DNA of 34,744 bases from an uncultured euryarchaeote (GTDB taxonomy: Archaea; Thermoplasmatota; Poseidoniia; Poseidoniales; Poseidoniaceae): NCBI GenBank assembly GCA_964012565.1, contig CAXGTB010000001.1, positions 1 through 34,744 of the forward strand, read 5' to 3'. The notes below the pieces were generated by a model. It was not told the origin of the DNA. It saw only the letters and a program-made list of their open reading frames with translations, and ran no database searches. Position numbers and translations under genes: made by a program. Shown here piece by piece: positions 2,990 to 34,744 of this stretch. Positions within the stretch are counted from its first letter, which is position 1; each line of letters opens with the position of its first letter.

Positions 2990-3118
2990 ATGGGACTTTC
3001 CTGTGTTAGATTAAATAACAAGTTTATTCGTAAGCGAATTGTGAACCGCAAGGCGATACTCCTTACTGCCCTGATGCTATTGGTTTCAGCAAGCCCATTT
3101 GTAACCCCATCTTCTGCT
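2990..3118 (+). other. Predicted Sec signal peptide of the surface protein (aa 1-43)
   Basis: Lys/Arg-rich n-region, hydrophobic h-region ILLTALMLLVSA and an SSA-N candidate cleavage site. Confidence 0.55.
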
Positions 3119-6100
3119 AATGAAATAGAAGAAATCGAGGTCTTGCAAACTGTAGTTAATCCAAGTAACAACCATACCTACCATCTTCTTTCAGCATCAT
3201 CTTGGAGTGATGCTGCTTCTGTTGCTAGGAGTCTGGGTGGTTTTTTGGTAACAATTGATGATGCTAGTGAAGACGATTGGATATTCGATACTTTTGCAGT
3301 CGATAACGACACAACTCGACATTTATGGATTGGACTATCCGATCATCAAGATGAAGGAGATTTCAGATGGCATGACGGAACACCATTTACCTACAGAAAC
3401 TGGGGTGAAGGCCAACCTGGCGATGGAGATGATGAAGACTATGTTCATATCACTGGAACCAATATGGGTTCTATTGAACCAGCCACATGGAATGACCTAG
3501 AAGATGACCCACAGTACTTCCCAGTATACGGAGTTGTAGAAATTGGAGAGGGGGCAGATTACGCCCTAAGATTTGATGGTGATGACGACCACATCATTAT
3601 CGATGAAGAAATGCCTGATTGGAACGGAGAAATCGAAATAGAAGCGTGGGTAAATCTCGCTGAAACTGAAGGAATCCAGTTCATAACAATGTACGGTGAC
3701 TATGGATGGGGACTTTACCTAAACGACGGATACTTAGCATATTCAAACGAATATTCACTGTCAAGAAACCCTACATCTAACATATCTGTTCAACAAGGAG
3801 TTTGGACTCATGTGAAAGTGGTTGTCAACACCGAAAACGGTGGTGAATTTTTCATAGATAACCAATCAGCAGGAATGATTGACGTCAACAAATCTCAAAT
3901 TCCAAGTGGAGACTTTGGATCGAATGATTGCTTCCAATCCGGTGAAGAATGCGACGAATTGTACATTGGAAGAATGGGTGCAGGATGCGATTGCAACTAT
4001 TTCTATGGTTTGCTGGACGATGTAAGAATTGGAAATTCGAATAATGAATCAATATGGATGTTTACTGAAGGAGAAGGTGACATCACTGAAGATTCTCAAG
4101 GTTTGATGGGAGATATTCATGGAGCAGCATGGGTAATGCCTGATGGTACCATTATCGCCCAAGCAATAGAACTTGAAAATGGAGAATACTACTTTGACAT
4201 AAGTTCTAACGCTGGCGATACTCTGCTGTTTTTCATGGAGATTCCAGAAAATACTCAATATGTGACATTCTCAATGTATTCATATGACTACGGATATGAA
4301 GAGGATTACTATGAAGAACCAGAATATGAGATTTACATATCACAGGATGAAATCCCTTCCGCATGGGATCACGATTATGAAATCGAAACATATTACGGAT
4401 TGTATGTCTATGAATTCATCGAATGGCCAGAAGAAGGTGTTTATTGGATTACAGTCTCTTCAAATTATGATATTGGTGAGCTAGAGGTTAGTGCATATTG
4501 GGAAGAAGCACCAGAACCTCCCGAACTCGATGAGATGACAGAACTAAATGATGGAATTGCTATTACTAACCAAAGAATTCCAAGAAATAGTGGGGATCCT
4601 TTGTACTTCTATGTTGATTTAGAAGAAGAACTTGCAGAGTTAAGAGTCAATACATATGGAGGTCGTGGTGACTGCGAGTTACACATCGCCCTTGGTTCCC
4701 TACCATACATCGATGACTGGGGATGGTTAGAAGATGAATTCTTGATGGAAGGAAAATCTACCGAAGGCAGGCAACTTGGAGGCCAAGATGTTTCTGACCA
4801 CTCATACGGACCTGGTAACGATGAAAATGTACAAATTTTTGATGCACAACCAGGAATATATTATGTTATGATGACTACTTATAATCAATGCAGAGACGTC
4901 ACAATAAAGGCTGAATTCACATATAGTCCTGGAAATGTTGATCCTGAATCAGCAATTGAATTAACTGACGGAATTACCTATGGTCCACTAAGTGGGTTTG
5001 AAGGTTTAGATCAATACTTCTACATCGATGTACCTGTGGACACAGAAAGATTGGAAGTTGACTTGAGTAATGGTGATGGAGAAGCTAAACTGATGATGCG
5101 TCTAGAGCAATACCCTACTTGGACTACATATGACGAACATTCTAATGCACCTGGTGCAGGAGATAAGATTGGTTTCAACGACCCAACACCTGGAAGATGG
5201 TACATACTGCTTGGTAGTGAAGAATACTACAGTCGCATCGATATTACTGCATCTTTTGAGGACAGATATGTCTGGAGTTATGATGGTGAGCCAATTCAAT
5301 TATTCAACGATGAAGAAATTGGAGGAATTAGTGCTCCTGAAGGTGAAGAGTTGTACTTCTTTATCGACTTAGATGATTCATCTGCAATGGATTTGTCAAT
5401 AAAAACGTGGGGAGGTTCTGGGGACCTTGCGTTGTTTGCAGAAATCGAAGAAATCGACTGGGAGGACTTTGATGACGGACCAGGAGGAAGGCAATTTGGT
5501 GGAACAGAATTTGAATCGAATTCTGGTGAATCGAATGAAGAAATAAACATCTTTTTGGTCACAGGAAGAATTGACATCACAATTTATCCATATGCGGATA
5601 TTGATGAAATTACAATTCTCGCAACATGGGAAGAAATGGATATTCCTGGGCCAGATCCAGGACCAGATCCCCGACCAGATCCTCCAATAGGTGAAGAGAT
5701 TCTAACTTGCGATGAATACTCTGATTTCATCTTTGAGGACATGGATATGAATCAAGACGGAGATATCTCGAAAGATGAAATCATGTTTGAGGAAGATGAT
5801 GAATTCGAGGAATTTGACCGGAACAAAGACGGGGTTATTGACAAATCAGAACTCAAAACTCTCGCCTGCACATGTGAAAATGAGCTATACATTACGATTG
5901 AACAAATCTCGATGGATAATTGGGGATATAGCATTGAATATCTTGGCTCTATAGCTTGGAAAAACGAATACAATTTCTTCGAAATGGACTCAAACAATGA
6001 CATGGAACTCGATTATGAAGAAATAGAAGAGTACGCAGAAAATTGTGAAACAACGTATAATCCATTTGATAGAGATGGTGATGGCACTCCTGATGATAAG

Positions 6101-6454
6101 GACGCATTCCCTGATGATCCGGATGAAGATACCGATACAGACGGTGATGGAATTGGAGACAATGCAGATATCATCGCATCGGTTGATAATGACATAATCT
6201 GGGTTTCAGCAAGTGTTCTAGGAATTATCTTGGTTACTGTTCTTGGAATTCTCTTTGTTAGAGCACGTAGAGGTCCTGAATATGCTTGGGAAGAGTATCA
6301 GAAGGACAACATGTCTGAAGCAATGTTAGGTCAGATGTCAAATCCTGTCCAATCGCCACAGACCAACGTTCAAAACGTGCCACCAGCTCTAGATTTAGGA
6401 CCACCTGTAGAAAATGTACCTGAAGACATGACTGTATCAGATCTTTACGACTGA
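2990..6454 (+). CDS. Secreted, membrane-anchored mosaic surface/adhesion protein (C-type lectin + LamG + 4x PPC + EF-hands + TSP3 repeats + C-terminal TM helix)
   Basis: 1154-codon ORF. The N-terminus has a basic n-region plus hydrophobic core (KFIRKRIVNRKAILLTALMLLVSASPFVTPSSA). Domain motifs are listed as separate features. The composition is highly acidic, typical of Ca-binding extracellular proteins. Confidence 0.85.
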   Translation: MGLSCVRLNNKFIRKRIVNRKAILLTALMLLVSASPFVTPSSANEIEEIEVLQTVVNPSNNHTYHLLSASSWSDAASVARSLGGFLVTIDDASEDDWIFDTFAVDNDTTRHLWIGLSDHQDEGDFRWHDGTPFTYRNWGEGQPGDGDDEDYVHITGTNMGSIEPATWNDLEDDPQYFPVYGVVEIGEGADYALRFDGDDDHIIIDEEMPDWNGEIEIEAWVNLAETEGIQFITMYGDYGWGLYLNDGYLAYSNEYSLSRNPTSNISVQQGVWTHVKVVVNTENGGEFFIDNQSAGMIDVNKSQIPSGDFGSNDCFQSGEECDELYIGRMGAGCDCNYFYGLLDDVRIGNSNNESIWMFTEGEGDITEDSQGLMGDIHGAAWVMPDGTIIAQAIELENGEYYFDISSNAGDTLLFFMEIPENTQYVTFSMYSYDYGYEEDYYEEPEYEIYISQDEIPSAWDHDYEIETYYGLYVYEFIEWPEEGVYWITVSSNYDIGELEVSAYWEEAPEPPELDEMTELNDGIAITNQRIPRNSGDPLYFYVDLEEELAELRVNTYGGRGDCELHIALGSLPYIDDWGWLEDEFLMEGKSTEGRQLGGQDVSDHSYGPGNDENVQIFDAQPGIYYVMMTTYNQCRDVTIKAEFTYSPGNVDPESAIELTDGITYGPLSGFEGLDQYFYIDVPVDTERLEVDLSNGDGEAKLMMRLEQYPTWTTYDEHSNAPGAGDKIGFNDPTPGRWYILLGSEEYYSRIDITASFEDRYVWSYDGEPIQLFNDEEIGGISAPEGEELYFFIDLDDSSAMDLSIKTWGGSGDLALFAEIEEIDWEDFDDGPGGRQFGGTEFESNSGESNEEINIFLVTGRIDITIYPYADIDEITILATWEEMDIPGPDPGPDPRPDPPIGEEILTCDEYSDFIFEDMDMNQDGDISKDEIMFEEDDEFEEFDRNKDGVIDKSELKTLACTCENELYITIEQISMDNWGYSIEYLGSIAWKNEYNFFEMDSNNDMELDYEEIEEYAENCETTYNPFDRDGDGTPDDKDAFPDDPDEDTDTDGDGIGDNADIIASVDNDIIWVSASVLGIILVTVLGILFVRARRGPEYAWEEYQKDNMSEAMLGQMSNPVQSPQTNVQNVPPALDLGPPVENVPEDMTVSDLYD
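3152..3544 (+). other. C-type lectin-like domain (CTLD), cysteine-free variant
   Basis: WIGL motif (HLWIGLSD), FRWHDGTPFTYRNWGEGQPGDG (position of the QPD/EPN Ca/sugar loop), EDYVHI in place of EDCV, and WND (ATWNDLEDD). Confidence 0.65.
3551..4039 (+). other. LamG / concanavalin-A-like lectin domain
   Basis: ALRFDGDDDHIII ... IEAWVNL ... VWTHVKVVV ... LYIGR ... FYGLLDDVRIGN. This is the classic Laminin_G_3 pattern (ALxFDG..D.v ... W.hv ... G.iDevRi). Confidence 0.65.
4151..5635 (+). other. Four tandem pre-peptidase C-terminal (PPC)-like beta-sandwich domains
   Basis: A pattern recurs four times: acidic/aromatic strand, then l.v.l.g..GD.dL, then G.YYi.v. Examples: LYFYVDLEEELAELRVNTYGGRGDCELHIA...PGIYYVMMTTY; QYFYIDVPVDTERLEVDLSNGDGEAKLMM...PGRWYILLGS; LYFFIDLDDSSAMDLSIKTWGGSGDLALFA. 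The first copy is more divergent (YYFDISSNAGDTLLFFMEI...GVYWITVSS). Confidence 0.6.
5645..5686 (+). repeat. Imperfect tandem 12-nt repeat (ccagatccNNNa x3) encoding a PGPDPGPDPRPDPP linker
   Basis: Read directly: cct ggg cca gat cca gga cca gat ccc cga cca gat cct cca. Confidence 0.8.
5738..6169 (+). other. Ca-binding stalk: 2-3 EF-hand loops followed by thrombospondin type-3-like Asp-rich repeats
   Basis: Canonical EF loops DMNQDGDISKDE and DRNKDGVIDKSE, plus a degenerate DSNNDMELDYEE. TSP3-like stretch DRDGDGTPDDKDAFPDDPDEDTDTDGDGIGDNAD. Confidence 0.7.
6191..6259 (+). other. C-terminal transmembrane helix of the surface protein, followed by RARRG and a 64-aa tail
   Basis: IIWVSASVLGIILVTVLGILFV, then RARRG (positive-inside stop-transfer). 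The tail is Pro/Gln/Asn-rich and ends in DLYD. Confidence 0.75.
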
Positions 6455-7380
6455 TTGCGTTTCTTTCCAGGTGAAAGGCCCAAAGGCCGCATAAGAGATA
6501 GCACATGACGGTGCATTTGTGGTAGCATTTCAAACAATACTAGAGCAAGTAGGAACATTGCACCTAGAGAAACAAATCGTGCAGCATATGCATGTCCAAA
6601 TTCAAAAATTGACAAACCCATCCATCTCCAATCTGGATAACCCATCTGGAGCCAAATTAAGCCAGCATTTCTGAATAAATTCAGTATATGAATCAATGAT
6701 AATGCGATGAATAATGCCCTAACACGCTTTCTCCAATCCATTTCTAAGACAGATATTGCTCCGACGAAGATAATCATCGATTGAATAGCCGTACACGCTA
6801 AAACAAAGTTGATGTAGATTGGTTCTCCATTAACAAGCAATTCTGTGTGGAATGCGAATTCTGACATCTCCTCGCTGAGAAACCACTTATTTCCATCCCA
6901 AGTTTCCCAATTAACCGAAGGGCCATTCGAGGGGTTGACATAGGTGTCTCCAAGGGTCACATTCGCCCCACCTGCAAATGAAAGGAAGGCTGCAGATTGC
7001 CAAGCTACAAACCATATCGCTAGGACATTCAATATTGGAACATGAGCGATTAGAAGGTATGGCAAACCTGCTACTGCTACCGATCCTCTAAACCATCTTA
7101 ATGCACTAGCGTTTTTCTCTTCACTAACTCTCTTTTCCCAAAATGCAATCGCCACTGAACCAGGTAGTGTCAATCCACTCATCAAAACTAATACCCAATC
7201 ATCATGACTGAGGTAGAAACCAATGTCATTGAAGAAATAAAATCCTGTAAGTATCCAACCCACAGGAGCAATGGATTCAAATTTTCCAGTTCGACTTTTC
7301 CAGGCAAGAAAAAGTATTGACATTCCAATTGCACCAAGTATGGTGGCAATTGTTCTGTCAACCAAATAGTCGCCTGCCAT
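6445..7380 (-). CDS. Exosortase/archaeosortase-family membrane transpeptidase (ArtA-like)
   Basis: 311-aa polytopic membrane protein. It carries the family's ordered Cys / Arg / His signature: LACTAIQSM (compare exosortase ACSGxRS), ILNLFRNAGLIWL (N..R) and FEFGHAYAARF (His). A large extracytoplasmic loop precedes the Cys. The 3' end overlaps the adhesin gene by 10 bp (convergent). Confidence 0.55.
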   Translation of the reverse strand: MAGDYLVDRTIATILGAIGMSILFLAWKSRTGKFESIAPVGWILTGFYFFNDIGFYLSHDDWVLVLMSGLTLPGSVAIAFWEKRVSEEKNASALRWFRGSVAVAGLPYLLIAHVPILNVLAIWFVAWQSAAFLSFAGGANVTLGDTYVNPSNGPSVNWETWDGNKWFLSEEMSEFAFHTELLVNGEPIYINFVLACTAIQSMIIFVGAISVLEMDWRKRVRALFIALSLIHILNLFRNAGLIWLQMGYPDWRWMGLSIFEFGHAYAARFVSLGAMFLLALVLFEMLPQMHRHVLSLMRPLGLSPGKKRNQS

Positions 7381-27114: not shown

Positions 27115-27546
27115 ATGGGTAGATTGTTGGGGATTTTTTCCTCCAATGGTGGAGTTCCCAAACTTCCAATAGAATCCGCACAAATTGACTCTAACGGAAT
27201 AATTGGTGACAGTTGTAACAATAAGAAGCACCATGGCGGGCCTATGAAGGCAATTTGTGTTTTGGAGAACGAACTTCTAGTAAAATTACAATCTGAAGGT
27301 CATCCAATCCAAGCTGGCTCAACTGGAGAAAATATCCTGGTTGAGGATTATAATTTGGAAGTTGGAAAGGTGTTTGATGTAGGTGAAGTTAGGCTCGAGG
27401 TTGTGTCTGATGCAACACCTTGTTGGAAAATCGCAGATTCATTTACAGAAGGAGAATATCACCGAATGTCAAATGAAAAACATCCCGGTGACACCAGATG
27501 GTATTGCAGGGTATTGAAAGAGGGCTCAATCAGAATATCCGATTGA
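27115..27546 (+). CDS. MOSC-domain protein
   Basis: HHGGPMKAICVLE...GSTGENILVE...VRLEVVSDATPCWKI, with the conserved MOSC Cys context. ATG 27115 is preferred over TTG 27094. Confidence 0.65.
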   Translation: MGRLLGIFSSNGGVPKLPIESAQIDSNGIIGDSCNNKKHHGGPMKAICVLENELLVKLQSEGHPIQAGSTGENILVEDYNLEVGKVFDVGEVRLEVVSDATPCWKIADSFTEGEYHRMSNEKHPGDTRWYCRVLKEGSIRISD

Positions 27547-29260
27547 GTTGGTAATCTGTTAACTCTCGCAATGCTCTTAGTGCTGGGCTTTCAACCAAAC
27601 GATCTAAGCAATCATGTGCTTTTCTATGATACGCCTCTGCCTTAGACTTAGCATATTCAATTGAACCTAAATCATGTAATGCTTGATGTCCTAGAGCAAC
27701 TTGCTCTGCAGTCACATTTTCACCTTTACCTAGCACAGCGAGTAAATCATCCTTTGATTGTGAAGAAGGCTGTCTTAGGGCATGAATTACCATAAGAGTT
27801 CTTTTTCCTTGAGCCACATCACTTCCACTAGGTTTTCCAAGTGTATCTGTATCTGACATCACGTCAATTATATCGTCCATTAACTGGAAACACAACCCTA
27901 GGGCTAGTCCCCAATCATGCATGCATTGAATTATTTCTTTGTCAGCTCCAGCAAGATGTGAACCAACCTCTGCACAAGTAAGGAACATTGCTGCAGTTTT
28001 ACCATGAATCATCTCAGTATATTCTTCTTCTGAAACTACTTCTCTAGATTCAAATTCGATATCTAACTGTTGACCTTCACTACACTTCCTAACCATTCTA
28101 CCAATTCTTTTCACCAAGAATGGAAGGAGCGCAGGTTCAATCCCCTCTGCAACTGCCATTGCCTCAAACGCAATTGCTAGCATTGCATCACCGGCATTAA
28201 TTGCTGTAGGCAAATCATAGGCCTTGTGAACTGCTGGGCGACCACGACGTACATCATCATCATCCATAATATCGTCATGAACTAAAGTAAAGTTGTGAAT
28301 AATTTCAATAGCAGCACCTACATCTAAAAGTCCTGAATGGGTATCTCCAACAGCTTTAGCCACTAACCATGGTAGTGTCGCACGTAGTCTCTTCCCTCCA
28401 CCTTCCAGTAGATGCATCATCGCACCAGATAATCGGTCTAGTTTTGTGTGAGTTAGAGCACGTTCAATTCTCTGTTCCACCAAATCTTTGACTTCACCAA
28501 TGCTAATTTCCAATCCTGCACCTTTTGCTGATGGAAGTAAATGTGAGACATCACCCATATCGTGAATCAGATCATCAGGCTTTGTACATCCAGGTCTCCA
28601 CCAGTCATCGGTCATTATTCGAGCCGCTATACATCTAAACCAAGGAGCAATGATGTTGTTGTCATCATCGGCAACAAGCATTTCTTCTAACTCATCTTTA
28701 GAAACCCACTTGATTTCTTCTACCTCGTTTGCATTTGGATTTACGTCCACATCAACATGGATGACTAAACAGTGATCGATCTCTCTCTCAATCCACTCCT
28801 CATCTTGTCGAGCTTGGTATCTCATTTTTGTAACAAAATCAAACTTTTCAATCGGGACTTGCGATGGGTGTATTCCTAATTCTTGTTCGAGTTTCCTTAT
28901 TGCCGCTCTTTTTACACCAAGTGCATCTTTCAATTCTAGTTCATCTTCAGAATATAGGGGGTGAGAGCAACATGAATTTGCCCAAACACCTGGGAAAGTA
29001 ATCTTGTGTGATGCTCTTTTTTGAAGCAATAAGCGACCTGATAAATCAAACAGAAGGACACTAAAGGCACGATGATATTTGCCTTCACCATAGTGACTAT
29101 TGAACTTGGAAATCGGACCAATAACCTCGTCGTTTTCTTCAACTTGAATCACGGCTTCAGACATTAGTGATTCTTGTATTGAATCCGAACCTTCCAGAGC
29201 GTGAGATGCATCCGAGTCCATTTGTATGGTTGGAACATCCTCTATCCCATATCCAGTCAT
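27530..29260 (-). CDS. Fusion protein: type-1 isopentenyl-diphosphate isomerase (Nudix) + short-chain trans-prenyl diphosphate (GGPP-type) synthase
   Basis: N-terminal half: YHRAFSVLLFD...LLLQKRASHKITFPGVWANSCCSHP...REIDHCLV...EVEEIKWVS (IDI1). C-terminal half: FARM LVHDDIMDDDDVRRGRP with Phe at -5, and SARM FQLMDDIIDV. It is a single uninterrupted frame. The ORF opens at GTG 29275; ATG 29260 is preceded by GGTGAG. Confidence 0.85.
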   Translation of the reverse strand: MTGYGIEDVPTIQMDSDASHALEGSDSIQESLMSEAVIQVEENDEVIGPISKFNSHYGEGKYHRAFSVLLFDLSGRLLLQKRASHKITFPGVWANSCCSHPLYSEDELELKDALGVKRAAIRKLEQELGIHPSQVPIEKFDFVTKMRYQARQDEEWIEREIDHCLVIHVDVDVNPNANEVEEIKWVSKDELEEMLVADDDNNIIAPWFRCIAARIMTDDWWRPGCTKPDDLIHDMGDVSHLLPSAKGAGLEISIGEVKDLVEQRIERALTHTKLDRLSGAMMHLLEGGGKRLRATLPWLVAKAVGDTHSGLLDVGAAIEIIHNFTLVHDDIMDDDDVRRGRPAVHKAYDLPTAINAGDAMLAIAFEAMAVAEGIEPALLPFLVKRIGRMVRKCSEGQQLDIEFESREVVSEEEYTEMIHGKTAAMFLTCAEVGSHLAGADKEIIQCMHDWGLALGLCFQLMDDIIDVMSDTDTLGKPSGSDVAQGKRTLMVIHALRQPSSQSKDDLLAVLGKGENVTAEQVALGHQALHDLGSIEYAKSKAEAYHRKAHDCLDRLVESPALRALRELTDYQLNRIF

Positions 29261-29295
29261 AGACTCACCATGCACTCGGTTTCGCGCCGACTACA

Positions 29296-30075
29296 TCAAC
29301 AGTTCCCTGCAATTATTCGAGTTCCAATGACTGATTTTCCTTCGATTGCAGCTAAAATACGATCATATTTCTCACCATTAACAAGTAATACATCGATACC
29401 TTGTTCAGCAATCATTGCGCCTCTTGACGCTTTGAGACCAATTCCTCCGGTTACATCAATTTCCGATGCATGCTCACCTTCAAACTCGAGGCCAGGGTGC
29501 CAGACATCAATCAAATCCTCTGGTTTTGCTTTATTTGGAGGAACTCGTAAAATTCCATCGACACCTCCTATTGCAAAGATTGCTCGCTCTACATTAGAGA
29601 TTTCAGTAGAGTACCTCAACATTATATCATCACCAGATAAAATTCCAAATTCTTTGTCATCATCATCGACCACATCTCCATACACAACAGTTACGCCGTT
29701 GTGTAGTGGCAAATTACCTGCGAATTGAGGACCTGTCCCTTTCGCCCATTCATGCGGTGGGAATGACTGAACATCCAATCCATGCGATCTTAATGCTGAA
29801 ACAACAATCTGGTTCAATTTAAGCATGTCATCTCTGACTTCTTTCACTGCTGAATCTTGATCTAACCCCTCGATTCGACCATCTGCAAGTCGATGTTTTT
29901 TGGCCTTCATATGTCCAAATGATCCTGCACCGTGAATGATTACTAGATTCTTGGATGTGTTTGAACAAATCTTAGCGAGAGAATCGATTACATCTTGATT
30001 TGCTGTACAAAGTTTGTCTTTGTGTGTAATTAGCCCGCCACCCCACTTGATGACGACGGTTCCGACCATGCACAT
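29296..30075 (-). CDS. ipk: Isopentenyl phosphate kinase
   Basis: Amino-acid-kinase fold with IPK motifs VIKWGGGLITHKD and IIHGAGSFGH. The stop is 35 nt upstream of the IDI-GGPPS start on the same strand. An alternative ATG lies at 30069. Confidence 0.8.
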   Translation of the reverse strand: MCMVGTVVIKWGGGLITHKDKLCTANQDVIDSLAKICSNTSKNLVIIHGAGSFGHMKAKKHRLADGRIEGLDQDSAVKEVRDDMLKLNQIVVSALRSHGLDVQSFPPHEWAKGTGPQFAGNLPLHNGVTVVYGDVVDDDDKEFGILSGDDIMLRYSTEISNVERAIFAIGGVDGILRVPPNKAKPEDLIDVWHPGLEFEGEHASEIDVTGGIGLKASRGAMIAEQGIDVLLVNGEKYDRILAAIEGKSVIGTRIIAGNC

Positions 30076-30137
30076 GCTAGAGGATTCCTACTAATGTGTG
30101 CATTGGATTTACATGGGAGTTTGGAATCGCCTGTGAC

Positions 30138-30476
30138 ATGACAGAGTCTCCGAGTGTGGATGAGTTCATTCGTCACATGCAAGCAGAATTGGATGCTTGT
30201 GAAGAGATTGTAGACAAGAAAGAGCGACAGAAGCGCCAATGGCAAATCGAATCATCATTATTAATGGCAATCGAATTTTCTAATCGTTTCAAAGAATTAT
30301 CTAAACTAGGACAGAATCCATTGAAAATAGTACAAGCACTTGCATCTCCAGATGCATCAAGCGCAGATATTGCAAAACAGGTAATTGCAATTGCGGGCGG
30401 TATGTGTCCGCATTGTGGTGCACCAATGGATGCAGACCTAGATTTCTGTTCTAGTTGCGGAAACTACGTGGAATAA
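30138..30476 (+). CDS. Hypothetical protein with C-terminal zinc ribbon
   Basis: CPHCGAPMDADLDFCSSCGNY at the C-terminus; the N-terminal part is helical. ATG 30138 is preferred over GTG 30096. Confidence 0.5.
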   Translation: MTESPSVDEFIRHMQAELDACEEIVDKKERQKRQWQIESSLLMAIEFSNRFKELSKLGQNPLKIVQALASPDASSADIAKQVIAIAGGMCPHCGAPMDADLDFCSSCGNYVE

Positions 30477-31269: not shown

Positions 31270-32409
31270 ATGCGAGCAGTTATTTCGGACTATGTTCGGA
31301 CACCGTTTCATCGAGCCCACAAGGGTGCACTTGCAAACTTTAGACCTGAGGATATGCTCGAAGCAATCGTTTCGGGGATTTTAGATAGAAATGATGTCAA
31401 CACAGAGGACATTGAAGATCTGATGTTAGGTTGTGCATATCCGGAAGGTGTTCAAGGTTTGAATCTTGGAAGAATTGCAACATATCTTCCAGGTCTGCCA
31501 AATACAATTCCAGGAATGACAACAAACCGTTTATGCGGTTCATCTATGCAGGTAGCTCATTCAGCAGCCGGTTCAATCAAATTAGGTTCGGGAGAAGTGT
31601 TCATTGCTGCAGGAGTGGAAACTATGTCCTTAGTACAACGAGGCGGATGGAATAGAGACCTACACCCGGGAATTGAAGAGAGATATCCTGATGCATACAT
31701 CTCTATGGGATTGACAGCAGAAAACTTAGCAAGAGATTACTCGATTTCTCGACTAGAGCAAGAGGAGTTTGCTCTTGGGAGTCACGAAAAGGCCCTTAGT
31801 GCCCAAAGTAACGGACTACTTACTGGTGAAATAATACCTGTTCAAACCGATGGAAACAAGATAGAAATCGATGGTTGTATGCGTTCAAGTTCAATAGAAA
31901 AAATGGCTAGACTACCAACCGCATTTTTGGAGGATGGAACCGTCACTGCAGCAACATCGTCCCCGTTAACCGATGGAGCAGCATGTAACCTAATATGCTC
32001 CGATTCTTATGTAGAAGAGAATAGTATGAATGGACTTGCTGAGATCATATCAACAGCAGTGGTTGGAGTCCCACCTCACATAATGGGAATTGGACCTGTT
32101 GATTCATCAACAAAAGCCCTTGAGAGGGCAGGTATTACCATGGATGATCTAGATGTTATCGAATTAAACGAGGCTTTTAGCGCTCAATCATTAGCAGTCA
32201 TGAAGGATCTAAATCTCAATTCCGACGATGAAAGAGTGAATATCGATGGTGGAGCACTAGCGATAGGTCACCCACTTGGAGCTAGTGGTGCGAGAATATT
32301 AGGAAAAGCAGCATCACTACTAAACCGAGAGAATGGAGAGTACGCTCTAGCCTCAATGTGTATCGGTGGCGGCATGGGAATTGCAACAGTATTACGCAAA
32401 TATCAATGA
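31270..32409 (+). CDS. Acetyl-CoA C-acetyltransferase / thiolase (class II, bacterial-type)
   Basis: Active-site Cys NRLCGSSMQ, GHPLGASGAR (His), CIGGGMG (second Cys), NEAFSAQ. Confidence 0.88.
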   Translation: MRAVISDYVRTPFHRAHKGALANFRPEDMLEAIVSGILDRNDVNTEDIEDLMLGCAYPEGVQGLNLGRIATYLPGLPNTIPGMTTNRLCGSSMQVAHSAAGSIKLGSGEVFIAAGVETMSLVQRGGWNRDLHPGIEERYPDAYISMGLTAENLARDYSISRLEQEEFALGSHEKALSAQSNGLLTGEIIPVQTDGNKIEIDGCMRSSSIEKMARLPTAFLEDGTVTAATSSPLTDGAACNLICSDSYVEENSMNGLAEIISTAVVGVPPHIMGIGPVDSSTKALERAGITMDDLDVIELNEAFSAQSLAVMKDLNLNSDDERVNIDGGALAIGHPLGASGARILGKAASLLNRENGEYALASMCIGGGMGIATVLRKYQ

Positions 32410-32444: not shown

Positions 32445-33446
32445 ATGGGTATCCGTAAAGGCCGTAGAGAAGCCTATGAAAATCTAAGTATTGCAGAGGA
32501 AGGAGATTGTCCTCGCTGTGGTGGAGAGTCTCAGCCATCAACTCTAGCTGGATACCTAAGTTGTGCTCGTTGTGGTTATGAATGGAAAGATCCTAATCAC
32601 GTAGCACAAAAAAGAGGGCCTCCTGAAACTTATCGTAGAGATGCTGAACTGATTGAAGAATTTAAACATGAAATGCAAAGCGGTGATTTGAGCAATGTCC
32701 TTGGCATTGACAGTGGCTTGTCTGGAGCTCAAGAAGCATCGCTAAAACGGTTAGAAGACAAATGGATGAGTGGAATGAGTGGACACTTTAATGCTGCAGC
32801 AGAAGAAAGAAAACCCTTGATGATTTCATTTGATGACGATGACAACTTAGTTGATACAACCATTGGAAGTATCACAATAGTTGCAAATGGATTTGATGGA
32901 GGAGAAGAAATTCGCTTAGAATACCCAGGTATCGGAACTGAATTTTACGCTTTTGATGAAGCAAGCGAGACAGGTTGGAGAAGAGGTAGGACTGCAGAAG
33001 ATACTGCAAGATCAATAACCAATGTAATCAATCGTCATTCGAATTTAGTCTATGCAAATCAGGAGGGGAGTGTGATTTTGCTTGAACTGAGAGGTGAACA
33101 ATTGAAAGCAGACTCTCTGGTAATTTTCGTAGATGACCCCGGAGGAACCGATATCGTTGCAGAGAAGTCAGGAGTTTCTATGGATCCAAGAGATGTTAGA
33201 ATGGTTGAAGACTACAAGGTTGTAGTTGAAATTTGTTTAGCAGATGGTATAATTTCTCCTTCAGAAGATCAGATGCTTTGGGCTATGCGTCAACAACTTG
33301 GCATCGACGATTACCTCCATGTTCAAATCGTTCAGCAAATTTTTGGAGAGCATGCTCTCAAAGAATGTACCAATTGTGGTGCAATGGCTGACCTTTATGC
33401 CGACTATGCTGCATGGTATTGTAAAGCATGCGAAAATTGGTGTTAG
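32445..33446 (+). CDS. Hypothetical protein with zinc ribbons at both termini and a TerB-like helical segment
   Basis: N-terminal CPRCGG...SCARCGYEW. C-terminal CTNCGAMADLYADYAAWYCKACENWC. The segment ICLADGIISPSEDQMLWAMRQQLGIDD resembles TerB/DjlA-N type helical domains (weak). The central ~110 aa are unassigned. Confidence 0.5.
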   Translation: MGIRKGRREAYENLSIAEEGDCPRCGGESQPSTLAGYLSCARCGYEWKDPNHVAQKRGPPETYRRDAELIEEFKHEMQSGDLSNVLGIDSGLSGAQEASLKRLEDKWMSGMSGHFNAAAEERKPLMISFDDDDNLVDTTIGSITIVANGFDGGEEIRLEYPGIGTEFYAFDEASETGWRRGRTAEDTARSITNVINRHSNLVYANQEGSVILLELRGEQLKADSLVIFVDDPGGTDIVAEKSGVSMDPRDVRMVEDYKVVVEICLADGIISPSEDQMLWAMRQQLGIDDYLHVQIVQQIFGEHALKECTNCGAMADLYADYAAWYCKACENWC

Positions 33447-33543
33447 TTAGTTGAAATATAGATTTATTTCATGTGCGTTCATAGTTCCTTTGTCAAGGTA
33501 TTATTCATAAGGTGAGAGCCAATCGCCTAAACTGGCGAGTATT

Positions 33544-34569
33544 ATGGCTGAAGAAGTACTATACATCGGAATTGACCTTGGAACCTTTCGCTCCGTAATG
33601 GTATCAAGCGATAGTCACGAAGAAGAAGAGCTCACTGTAATTGGAACCCCTAAGGACCCAATTGCACGAAATTTCCTGAAGAGAGATGTTCTCTTCGGCA
33701 ATGAAGCATTGAAGAACAGACTAGCTCTGAATCTGTTTAGACCTCTAGAACTTGGTGTAATTAAGGACACACCAGAAGATCGTGAATTCATTGCTCACTT
33801 CATTACCCACTTAATCGGTCTATCCGACCCTGAAGACTACGACCGTGTAGTTGCCGTAATTGGAGCACCTGCTGAAGCAAGTCACGTTGACAAGACTTCT
33901 ATCTTCGATGCTGCTGCTGGTTCAGTGAACGCTGCAATGATTATCTCAGAACCGTTCGCTGTTGCATATGCTCTTGACATGATTGAGCACACTCTTGTAA
34001 TCGATATTGGCGCTGGAACTACTGACTTGTGTAGAGTATACGGTACTATTCCAGGCCCAGGTGATCAGATGCACACTGGACATGCTGGAGATTTTGTTGA
34101 CAGACAAATAATTACTGAAGTACAGAAGAAGTACAACGGCGCACAAATCACAAAAGATATGGCTCGCCGCTGGAAGGAACAATATTCCTTTGTTTCAACT
34201 TCAACACCTGATGACCCAATAATGGTCGATTTCTCAATCGAAGGTAAGGCTATGACACTCGACATCACAGATTGTATTCAAGCAGCTTGTGAATCAATCG
34301 TTGACCCTATTGTTGAAAATGTTAAGCAATTAATCGCTGGTTCAAACCCTGAATTCCATGATGAATTCCGCAGGAACATGGTTCTAGCAGGCGGAGGATC
34401 GGGAATCAGAGGACTTGGTGCACTTATCGAGCGCCGTTTGTCCGATATGGGTGACGTGAATGTTCACGTTGTCGATGATCCTGTCAGACTAGGTGCAATG
34501 GGCGGTCTAAGACTTGCAATGGAAGTACCTGAAGATATGTGGAAGAACCTAACTCTAGCTTCTCGCTGA
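33544..34569 (+). CDS. Actin-fold ATPase, MamK-like (MreB/ParM superfamily)
   Basis: Phosphate-1 YIGIDLGTFRS, phosphate-2 LVIDIGAGTTDL, adenosine motif MVLAGGGSGIRGL. Additional stretches match my recollection of MamK rather than MreB: SEPFAVAYALD, YGTIPGPGDQ, WKEQYSFVS, DPVRLGAMGGLRLA. Confidence 0.75.
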   Translation: MAEEVLYIGIDLGTFRSVMVSSDSHEEEELTVIGTPKDPIARNFLKRDVLFGNEALKNRLALNLFRPLELGVIKDTPEDREFIAHFITHLIGLSDPEDYDRVVAVIGAPAEASHVDKTSIFDAAAGSVNAAMIISEPFAVAYALDMIEHTLVIDIGAGTTDLCRVYGTIPGPGDQMHTGHAGDFVDRQIITEVQKKYNGAQITKDMARRWKEQYSFVSTSTPDDPIMVDFSIEGKAMTLDITDCIQAACESIVDPIVENVKQLIAGSNPEFHDEFRRNMVLAGGGSGIRGLGALIERRLSDMGDVNVHVVDDPVRLGAMGGLRLAMEVPEDMWKNLTLASR

Positions 34570-34574
34570 GTCTT

Positions 34575-34744
34575 TCACTCTTCTTCTACTCCTAGTACCA
34601 ACGGAGAATCGCAATGAGGACATCTGTCCTTTGGTGACAATAGCAGAGGATTTACTGCTAGAACAGCTAAGCATGTTGGGCATGCTGCAAGCATTTCATT
34701 TGCTGGTAGATTGATTTGTTCATCATAAATCGAATGACCACTGT
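34575..34744 (-). CDS. 3' end of a minus-strand CDS (partial, runs off window) ending in a double CxxC zinc ribbon
   Basis: Hand translation of the reverse strand gives ...SGHSIYDEQINLPANEMLAACPTCLAVLAVNPLLLSPKDRCPHCDSPLVLGVEEE*. That is 55 codons open to the window edge, below the track's 60-aa cutoff. Confidence 0.35.
   Translation of the reverse strand, partial: SGHSIYDEQINLPANEMLAACPTCLAVLAVNPLLLSPKDRCPHCDSPLVLGVEEE

Follow-up and report, generated by a model that had tools for sequence, protein, structure and literature searches.

The closest described relatives of the protein studied here are the actins MamK and BeeR, both of which form ATP-dependent filaments, two-stranded in MamK and arranged as three-stranded tubes in BeeR (PMC11929497). 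The BeeR study also reported that relatives of MamK polymerize and have other functions outside magnetotactic bacteria (PMC11929497), and MamK was described as the closest subfamily to the haloarchaeal actin homolog salactin (PMC10746226). Here, we describe a MamK-like actin gene in 34,744 nucleotides of DNA from an uncultured euryarchaeote of the Poseidoniales, or Marine Group II (assembly GCA_964012565.1, contig CAXGTB010000001.1, positions 1 to 34,744; this whole stretch is referred to below as the window). As far as we know, Marine Group II ranks with the most abundant archaeal groups of surface seawater and has not been brought into culture, so its cell biology is essentially unexplored. 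To our knowledge, few archaeal actins have been characterized (crenactin, Ta0583, salactin, volactin, and the Asgard actins), and in the literature that we searched, we found no description of an actin of the MamK family from either Marine Group II or Thermoplasmatota.

The gene in question lies close to one end of the window.

33544-34569, plus strand: MamK-family actin-like ATPase, Poseidoniales paralog A, 341 amino acids, assigned from NCBIfam profiles, the sequences of solved structures, and its AlphaFold2 (AF2) fold

We conclude that the 341-amino-acid (aa) protein is a MamK-family actin with a complete actin-fold ATPase and that, within the broad MamK-like family, it belongs to a divergent branch. 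Our best explanation of the gene goes further, and we give it a probability of roughly 60%: it would be a chromosomal core actin of the Poseidoniales, one of two paralogs, which by analogy with MamK and BeeR would form ATP-dependent filaments.

Assignment of the actin to the MamK-like family

The 341-aa protein contains the phosphate-1 motif GIDLGT (with D11), the phosphate-2 motif DIGAGTTD (with D154), and the adenosine motif AGGGS within AGGGSGIRGL; the coordinates and the full actin-fold motif set given in the original prediction, which had been made from the sequence alone, were exact. Among the NCBIfam models, it scores 359.9 bits with MamK (E = 1.2e-107), 211.5 with BeeR, 91.7 with MreB, 63.6 with salactin, and 15.7 with ParM. 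Searches against the sequences of solved structures likewise put MamK on top (1.6e-74), followed by BeeR (1.3e-42), with MreB far behind (1.4e-14) and eukaryotic actin at about 1e-3. The AF2 model of the protein has a predicted local distance difference test score (pLDDT) of 82 and a predicted template modeling score of 0.80; with this model, Foldseek returns filament-state MamK (5LJV) as its top hit, with a template modeling (TM) score of 0.87 and a root mean square deviation of 2.4 Å, ahead of BeeR (TM 0.82) and MreB in third place.

At the level of individual residues, E136 and D154 align to MamK E143 (in the SEPF motif) and D161, and both are conserved. The original prediction had singled out several stretches as resembling MamK, and all of them (AVIGxPAxAS, SEPFxVxYxLD, GTxPGPxDQ, KEQxSFV, NxVxAGGGSxIRGL, and DPxxxGxxGxLRLAxExPxxxW) appear in the HMMER alignment to the MamK structure 5LJW, an agreement well beyond chance. 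Its preference for MamK over MreB and crenactin is borne out by hidden Markov models (HMMs), solved-structure sequences, fold, and tree, and the same comparisons speak against an Hsp70- or FtsA-type protein. Profile, sequence, fold, and tree thus all place the protein in the broad MamK-like family, which comprises MamK, BeeR, and uncharacterized homologs.

Public annotation tells a different story. JGI and NCBI label homologs of this actin MreB or "rod shape-determining protein," and the best Pfam match of the 341-aa protein is MreB_Mbl, at 89.7 bits; the label probably arose because MamK is not represented among the Pfam models. An archaeal MreB that sets cell shape as bacterial MreB does would account for these names and for the top Pfam match, and a general role in cell shape may still apply to the protein, but we consider an MreB very improbable. 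The MreB models score 91.7 bits against a cutoff of 293 (PRK13927) and 80.8 against 365.75 (TIGR00904), far less than the MamK model; the solved MreB matches much more weakly than the solved MamK; MreB is a distant outgroup in the tree; and neither the window nor the next 10 kb contains the elongasome genes mreC, mreD, or rodA or a gene for a penicillin-binding protein. MreB shares the actin fold and a similar size with the window actin and is only a distant relative. Orthology to MreB is therefore ruled out by HMM, structure-sequence, and tree comparisons, and the public MreB label is wrong at the family level.

Two paralogs in the Poseidoniales and the slow evolution of paralog A

When one genome was scanned for each GTDB species, the Poseidoniales orthologs of the window gene (paralog A) showed 75-95% identity, and a second gene (paralog B) was 44-48% identical to the window gene, the two paralogs sharing about 46% identity. 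Both paralogs are present in three metagenome-assembled genomes (MAGs), namely, UBA255 (loci L013 and L033), ETNP17_MAG_14 (L011 and L034), and ERR599166_bin.80 (L020 and L037). Actin genes that appeared split at loci L022 and L025 are artifacts of scaffold gaps filled with N.

We inferred a neighbor-joining tree from 76 sequences and 335 columns with 100 bootstraps, including MamK, BeeR, and MreB. A long branch with 100% bootstrap support separates the MamK-like family from MreB, leaving the window actin outside MreB. Paralogs A and B form sister clades (bootstrap, 89), AMB-1 MamK lies elsewhere in the family, and BeeR is near the base. These results are consistent with a duplication giving rise to A and B in or before the ancestor of the Poseidoniales. 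The next relatives, at 39-48% identity, come from Planctomycetota, Thermoanaerobaculia, Nitrospirota, Brocadiaceae, Omnitrophota, ANME-2, and Methanoperedens. MamK-like actins are thus also carried by ANME-2/Methanoperedens and many nonmagnetotactic bacteria and are not peculiar to the archaeon studied here. As most members of the family are bacterial, we infer that acquisition from bacteria is the most likely origin, for which the tree itself gives no proof.

Mean pairwise distances were computed for four genes in 14 genomes from both Poseidoniales families.

Actin paralog A: 0.12
Tpt1: 0.33
333-aa zinc-ribbon protein: 0.43
Isopentenyl phosphate kinase (IPK): 0.79

Actin A is the slowest evolving of the four genes and the slower evolving of the two Poseidoniales paralogs. 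Slow evolution is typical of polymer-forming cytoskeletal proteins.

Paralog B, a protein of 334 aa, is found at L033 (5989-6993), L024 (5995-6999), and 15 more loci (L024-L041 and L047). An S8 subtilase of 1000-1300 aa is encoded upstream of it at all 17 loci, and a 420-aa protein that reads as coiled coil over nearly its whole length is encoded downstream at 14 of the 17; FtsY, prefoldin, and PcrB are near. One paralog B locus, L039, is on a contig labeled Verrucomicrobiales bacterium ARS100 (NZEQ01000025.1). Its gene order (FtsY, prefoldin, subtilase, actin, coiled-coil protein) is that of L034, and the contig is probably misbinned.

The nearest clade outside the Poseidoniales (46-49% identity; weakly supported, bootstrap, 46) consists of bacterial proteins of 500-1300 aa (P0244-P0259 and P0418-P0422). 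They begin with a conserved helical domain of ~110 aa that contains the motif EKxKFEEWARYFG, continue with a long disordered linker rich in K, S, and E, and end with a MamK-like actin. The neighbors of one of them, P0246 (L092, 8001-10364), are bacterial (UvrC, D-Ala-D-Ala ligase, and an M23 peptidase), and one homolog is named "KSB1." We considered these fusions as a clue to a partner of the window actin and rejected them; the N-terminal parts, coiled-coil plus disordered linker, are unrelated to the 333-aa protein described below, and the proteins are bacterial.

Host and contig integrity

The window is part of a Marine Group II (Poseidoniales) chromosome, as indicated by its archaeal genes and by the names of the actin homologs, which are Candidatus Poseidoniaceae, Thalassarchaeaceae, or Poseidoniales. 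The archaeal genes include those for aEF-2 (1014 bits), S7, S12, IPK, archaeosortase A, and a TiaS-like protein, along with a block encoding the proteasome alpha subunit, SBDS, and the exosome proteins Rrp4, Rrp41, and Rrp42. The surroundings of the actin are thus clearly archaeal, as had been proposed, with translation, exosome, proteasome, and isoprenoid genes. An identical actin in the same arrangement occurs on 15 contigs, including those from NCBI assembly GCA_002698545.1 and from Tara; the 8 of these 15 that were shown come from several separate ENA, NCBI, and JGI assemblies. G+C content is flat across the window, at 0.41-0.44. Recurrence on 15 contigs and flat G+C rule out a bacterial/archaeal chimera, which the original prediction had named as a possible objection.

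Divergence from MamK and comparison with other actins

Scores obtained with the MamK model (NCBIfam NF040964; cutoff, 400 bits) were as follows.

Desulfamplus MAG: 476 bits
Nitrospira: 425 bits
Omnitrophota MAG: 424 bits
Planctomycetota: 420 bits
Methanoperedens: 395 bits
Paralog A (orthologs of the window gene): 360-366 bits
Paralog B: 324-338 bits

Several points weigh against our explanation. With its 359.9 bits, the window protein falls below the cutoff for MamK in the strict sense, and no family member that we scored diverges further than the Marine Group II paralogs; homologs from magnetotactic bacteria, among which we count the Desulfamplus and Omnitrophota MAGs by assumption, and from Planctomycetota reach 420-476 bits. 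So divergent a score means that the filament architecture may differ, as it does in BeeR. At the deep nodes of the tree, bootstrap values are 0-46, too low to identify a donor lineage or to fix which way the gene was transferred. In addition, we know of no Marine Group II isolate.

The window actin shares with MamK of Magnetospirillum (5LJV, 5LJW, and 5JYG) its length class, the absence of terminal extensions, and all ATPase motifs. It differs from MamK in having an archaeal host and a separate branch in the tree and in the lack of a magnetosome cluster or of MamJ, MamY, or McaA/B-type partners nearby. The 341-aa protein is 38% identical to AMB-1 MamK over 333 residues; AMB-1 MamK is also 38% identical to the Desulfamplus and Omnitrophota homologs, so identity alone cannot separate functional classes. 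This equal identity, and MamK being the closest characterized family, could be taken to indicate a true archaeal MamK in charge of magnetosomes or of an organelle resembling them, but we give this idea almost no credence. The score is below the curated cutoff, the position in the tree differs from that of AMB-1 MamK, and MamK-like genes are widespread in nonmagnetotactic Planctomycetota, Acidobacteriota, and Nitrospirota. As the original prediction had noted, there is no magnetosome gene here. No cluster of mamA, mamB, mamI, mamM, and mamQ lies alongside the actin in the 34.7-kb window or the 10 kb beyond, and nearly all open reading frames of the window, like the genes within 10 kb past its end, either fell into housekeeping or other families or had no match, none of them being a Mam family; the search was confined to these regions. 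The 341-aa protein is not a magnetosome MamK ortholog.

One substitution known from MamK, A278D, stops polymerization, and A278 aligns to a native aspartate in the window actin, Asp273. We set this residue aside as uninformative because the column holds Asp or Glu in half of the aligned sequences, including the Desulfamplus and Omnitrophota homologs.

BeeR of Opitutus terrae (8R2N) is the second-best family for the window actin, which scores 211.5 bits against the BeeR cutoff of 530. The hallmark of BeeR, a disordered N-terminal extension of 30-50 aa, is not found in the window actin, whose actin core begins at residue 6. Like the haloarchaeal salactin and volactin, the protein is an archaeal actin homolog, but it belongs to neither family. 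It scores 63.6 bits against the NCBIfam salactin cutoff of 400; its Pfam Salactin score of 56 bits passes that model's own cutoff (27.1), yet it is below MreB_Mbl and far below MamK. With Pfam Volactin, the score is 26.5 bits against a cutoff of 35.

A ParM/Alp-type segregation motor encoded by a plasmid, a virus, or an integrated element, for which a zinc-ribbon protein serves as DNA-binding adaptor, would match the two-gene layout of an actin plus an L37ae-like ribbon protein and a weak match to a PHROG partition protein (E = 5e-8). This origin is highly improbable, however. The ParM match is poor (E = 0.0064; 15.7 bits against a cutoff of 417), the locus is a chromosomal housekeeping block in all Poseidoniales examined, G+C is uniform, no integrase or mobile-element gene is near, and the supposed adaptor lies upstream of the actin and is roughly threefold larger than ParR or AlfB. 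A role in chromosome segregation is conceivable and would fall within our best explanation. The locus resembles ParM/ParR, AlfA/AlfB, and crenactin/arcadins in that an actin gene is kept beside a lineage-specific gene, here that of a candidate partner; ParR, AlfB, and the arcadins are unrelated in sequence and fold to the candidate partner, the 333-aa protein encoded upstream.

The upstream double zinc-ribbon protein

Three features lead up to the actin gene.

31270-32409, plus strand: thiolase (Pfam Thiolase_N and Thiolase_C), 35 bp upstream of the zinc-ribbon gene
32445-33446, plus strand: 333-aa double zinc-ribbon protein, candidate actin partner
33447-33543, plus strand: spacer of 97 bp with two conserved A/T-rich motifs

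As originally described, the 333-aa gene is co-oriented with the actin across a 97-bp gap and encodes CxxC ribbons at both termini: CPRC (22-25) and CARC (40-43), and CTNC (308-311) and CKAC (326-329). Seven of these eight cysteines are invariant among 32 homologs down to 65% identity, C40 is at least 90% conserved, and much of the core is also conserved. The AF2 model has a pLDDT of 76 overall and of about 90 for residues 135-330. It predicts a basic N-terminal arm with an L37ae-like ribbon (4-48), a low-confidence helical linker (63-112), a confident alpha/beta core (about 135-250), TerB-like helices (254-303), and a C-terminal ribbon (305-332).

Similarity to known families is slight. Family matches are below threshold (Pfam Zn_ribbon_IS1595, 24.7 bits; Pfam TerB, 17.1 bits; also TFIIB and TFS), and the TerB match is not relied on here. 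Residues 9-59 match L37ae in a profile search (E = 0.006), and JGI names some homologs ribosomal L37ae/L43e; we rejected this identity, as the protein has three further domains and solved L37ae chains are about 70-116 aa long. A fold search of the PDB with the 333-aa model returned nothing at E ≤ 0.001, and the protein had no PHROG matches. For its core, there is a weak resemblance to domains that decorate flagellin and the tail proteins of phages, the matches to predicted viral structures spanning only 100-135 residues. The homologs form 307 clusters at 90% identity, and the named ones among the 120 listed are all Poseidoniales or "Euryarchaeota."

Conservation of the zinc-ribbon/actin junction

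In all 16 GTDB species representatives, the actin is immediately preceded by the 333-aa gene, which has the same orientation and is 48-160 bp away. The same junction is present on 3 Thalassarchaeaceae contigs, where the zinc-ribbon protein is 58% and the actin 82% identical to those of the window, and at five loci recovered by a reciprocal search with the zinc-ribbon protein. The two genes therefore stand side by side at every Poseidoniales locus examined, whichever is used as the query, as the original proposal of an upstream adaptor would lead one to expect. The junction outlasts replacement of the thiolase, gain or loss of a 277-aa gene that separates the thiolase from the zinc-ribbon gene, and at least three arrangements of the region downstream.

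The thiolase has been replaced nonorthologously within the order; it is of the classical type in the window and in Thalassarchaeaceae and of the archaeal Thiolase_C_1 type in other Poseidoniaceae. Loci with the latter type (L013, 2919-4807; L016, 2855-4824; L094, 1990-4004) have an additional gene of 265-281 aa with a weak DUF35/OB-fold match. A polyprenyl synthase of 581 aa fused to an N-terminal NUDIX domain (27530-30075) is encoded beside the archaeal IPK, and a small zinc-ribbon protein of 126 aa, DUF7575, is encoded 2 kb upstream (30096-30476). With the polyprenyl synthase, IPK, and thiolase, the actin neighborhood is rich in isoprenoid-lipid genes.

The spacer contains the motifs AAATATAGATT at 33454-33464 and TTCATAAGG at 33504-33512, the latter 36 nucleotides before the ATG. 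Alignment of nine spacers yields the order-wide consensus TTCTATAGATT plus TTCATAAAG, and several relatives have a GGTGA-like Shine-Dalgarno sequence before the actin start. Judging from these sequences, the motifs may correspond to an archaeal TATA/BRE element.

Is the zinc-ribbon protein a partner of the actin?

Several observations count against a partnership. In most of the lineages checked, the zinc-ribbon gene follows a thiolase, and all three genes, thiolase, zinc-ribbon gene, and actin, keep their order as one block. In this window, the thiolase is the nearer neighbor of the zinc-ribbon gene (35 bp, versus 97 bp for the actin). Judged by its motifs, the spacer probably provides the actin with a promoter and leader of its own. 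Mirror-tree analysis of the 14 genomes gave a partial correlation of 0.34 for actin and zinc-ribbon protein versus 0.36 for actin and Tpt1, with no specific coevolution of actin and zinc-ribbon protein beyond shared phylogeny. When an HMM of the 333-aa protein was run against all open reading frames of 98 loci, it found only the orthologs beside paralog A and none beside other MamK-like genes. What speaks for a partnership is synteny inside a block that is itself conserved, as read from gene order.

Much of this evidence would also suit a genuine MamK-type filament whose two zinc-ribbon neighbors are unrelated to it, the 333-aa protein perhaps acting with the thiolase and isoprenoid-lipid set, and we rate this alternative only a little short of an even chance. 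It accommodates the conserved order of the block, the nearby IPK and polyprenyl synthase, the unequal gaps, the promoter-like spacer motifs, and the absence of a specific coevolution signal. Zinc ribbons are moreover common in this genome, DUF7575 being another in the window, so being flanked by zinc-ribbon proteins weighs less, and the downstream zinc-ribbon gene tracks coaBC (see below). Against it, the thiolase is swapped and the 277-aa gene comes and goes, but the zinc-ribbon/actin junction is never broken; the pair stays intact while the region downstream of the actin is rearranged in at least three ways; and the 333-aa protein has no enzyme-like fold.

Taken together, the conserved order of the block, the spacer motifs, and the null mirror-tree result make a partnership plausible but unproven, and we propose only tentatively, with rather more doubt than belief, that the 333-aa protein functionally partners the actin. 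The original prediction had envisaged a filament system of an actin plus one or more zinc-ribbon adaptors. Of this, the upstream adjacency stands as invariant, though confounded by the conserved block, and the downstream gene drops out.

Proposed function of the Poseidoniales actin

Under our best explanation, that of a core filament-forming MamK-like actin, the protein would bind and hydrolyze ATP as MamK and BeeR do and would assemble into multistranded cytoplasmic filaments. Such a filament might serve as an intracellular positioning or scaffolding track for some cargo; its role would be neither that of a magnetosome organizer nor that of a guide for MreB-type cell wall synthesis. If an adaptor or regulator specific to this lineage exists, the 333-aa protein would be the leading candidate, and its basic, L37ae-like N-terminal ribbon would suit the binding of nucleic acid (the chromosome) or other cargo. 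An extended version, in which two MamK-family filaments, probably from bacteria, each have their own partner (the 333-aa protein for A and the 420-aa coiled-coil protein for B) and position chromosomes or other cargo, is speculative and, on present evidence, unlikely.

What is new is an archaeal, duplicated, and highly conserved MamK branch with a neighbor found only in the Poseidoniales; the kind of protein itself is known. This strongly conserved pair of MamK-family actins would provide a concrete handle on cell organization in Marine Group II. It would be a further case, after BeeR, of a MamK branch that works outside magnetosomes and apparently the first in a major lineage of archaeal plankton.

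A different neighbor is found in Methanoperedens (L052, 5947-7608), where a MamK-like gene is followed with zero gap by one for a 203-aa protein with an Arch_fla_DE domain (ArlD/E-like, 52.9 bits) and a C-terminal coiled coil. This protein may be another lineage-specific actin partner, and such partners beside MamK-like genes may be a recurring pattern, which we regard as a lead.

The downstream convergent gene and other features of the window

A convergent gene follows the actin and is cut by the end of the window.

34575-34744, minus strand: C-terminal 55 codons of a membrane protein, with its stop at 34575, 5 bp past the actin stop

As had been noted, this reading frame ends in CPTC...CPHC; it reads ...CPTC...CPHCDSPLVLGVEEE* and forms a CPxC...CPHC ribbon. 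A full copy of 226 aa (L001, 7620-8300) has three or four hydrophobic segments, probably membrane spanning, followed by the ribbon, and no Pfam family was found for it. The gene evolves fast, with 29-56% identity across the order, and lies beside coaBC wherever it is found. At L016, three genes, one of them a Sir2, have been inserted and place it 2 kb from the actin. Among the 16 representatives, L009, L010, L013, L015, and L023 lack it in the 6 kb that follow the actin. The co-occurrence with the actin that the original prediction had hoped for on this side therefore fails; the gene is displaced in one of 16 representatives, is missing in five, and stays with coaBC. The membrane protein is most likely an unrelated neighbor and not part of the actin system.

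Its length is also inconstant. Next to actins that are 100% identical, the called length is 226 aa (L001, 7620-8300), 95 aa (L002, 11032-11319), or 189 aa (L003, 11032-11601), and the tail after the ribbon is not the same in the window as in L001. These differences mark the gene as either hypervariable or in decay.

Elsewhere, no tRNA or Rfam match was found anywhere in the window. The stretch 2990-7380 encodes archaeosortase A (6445-7380, minus strand) and, next to it, a protein of 1154 aa that may be a sorted cell surface adhesin, as it combines C-type lectin, LamG, PPC, and EF-hand domains.

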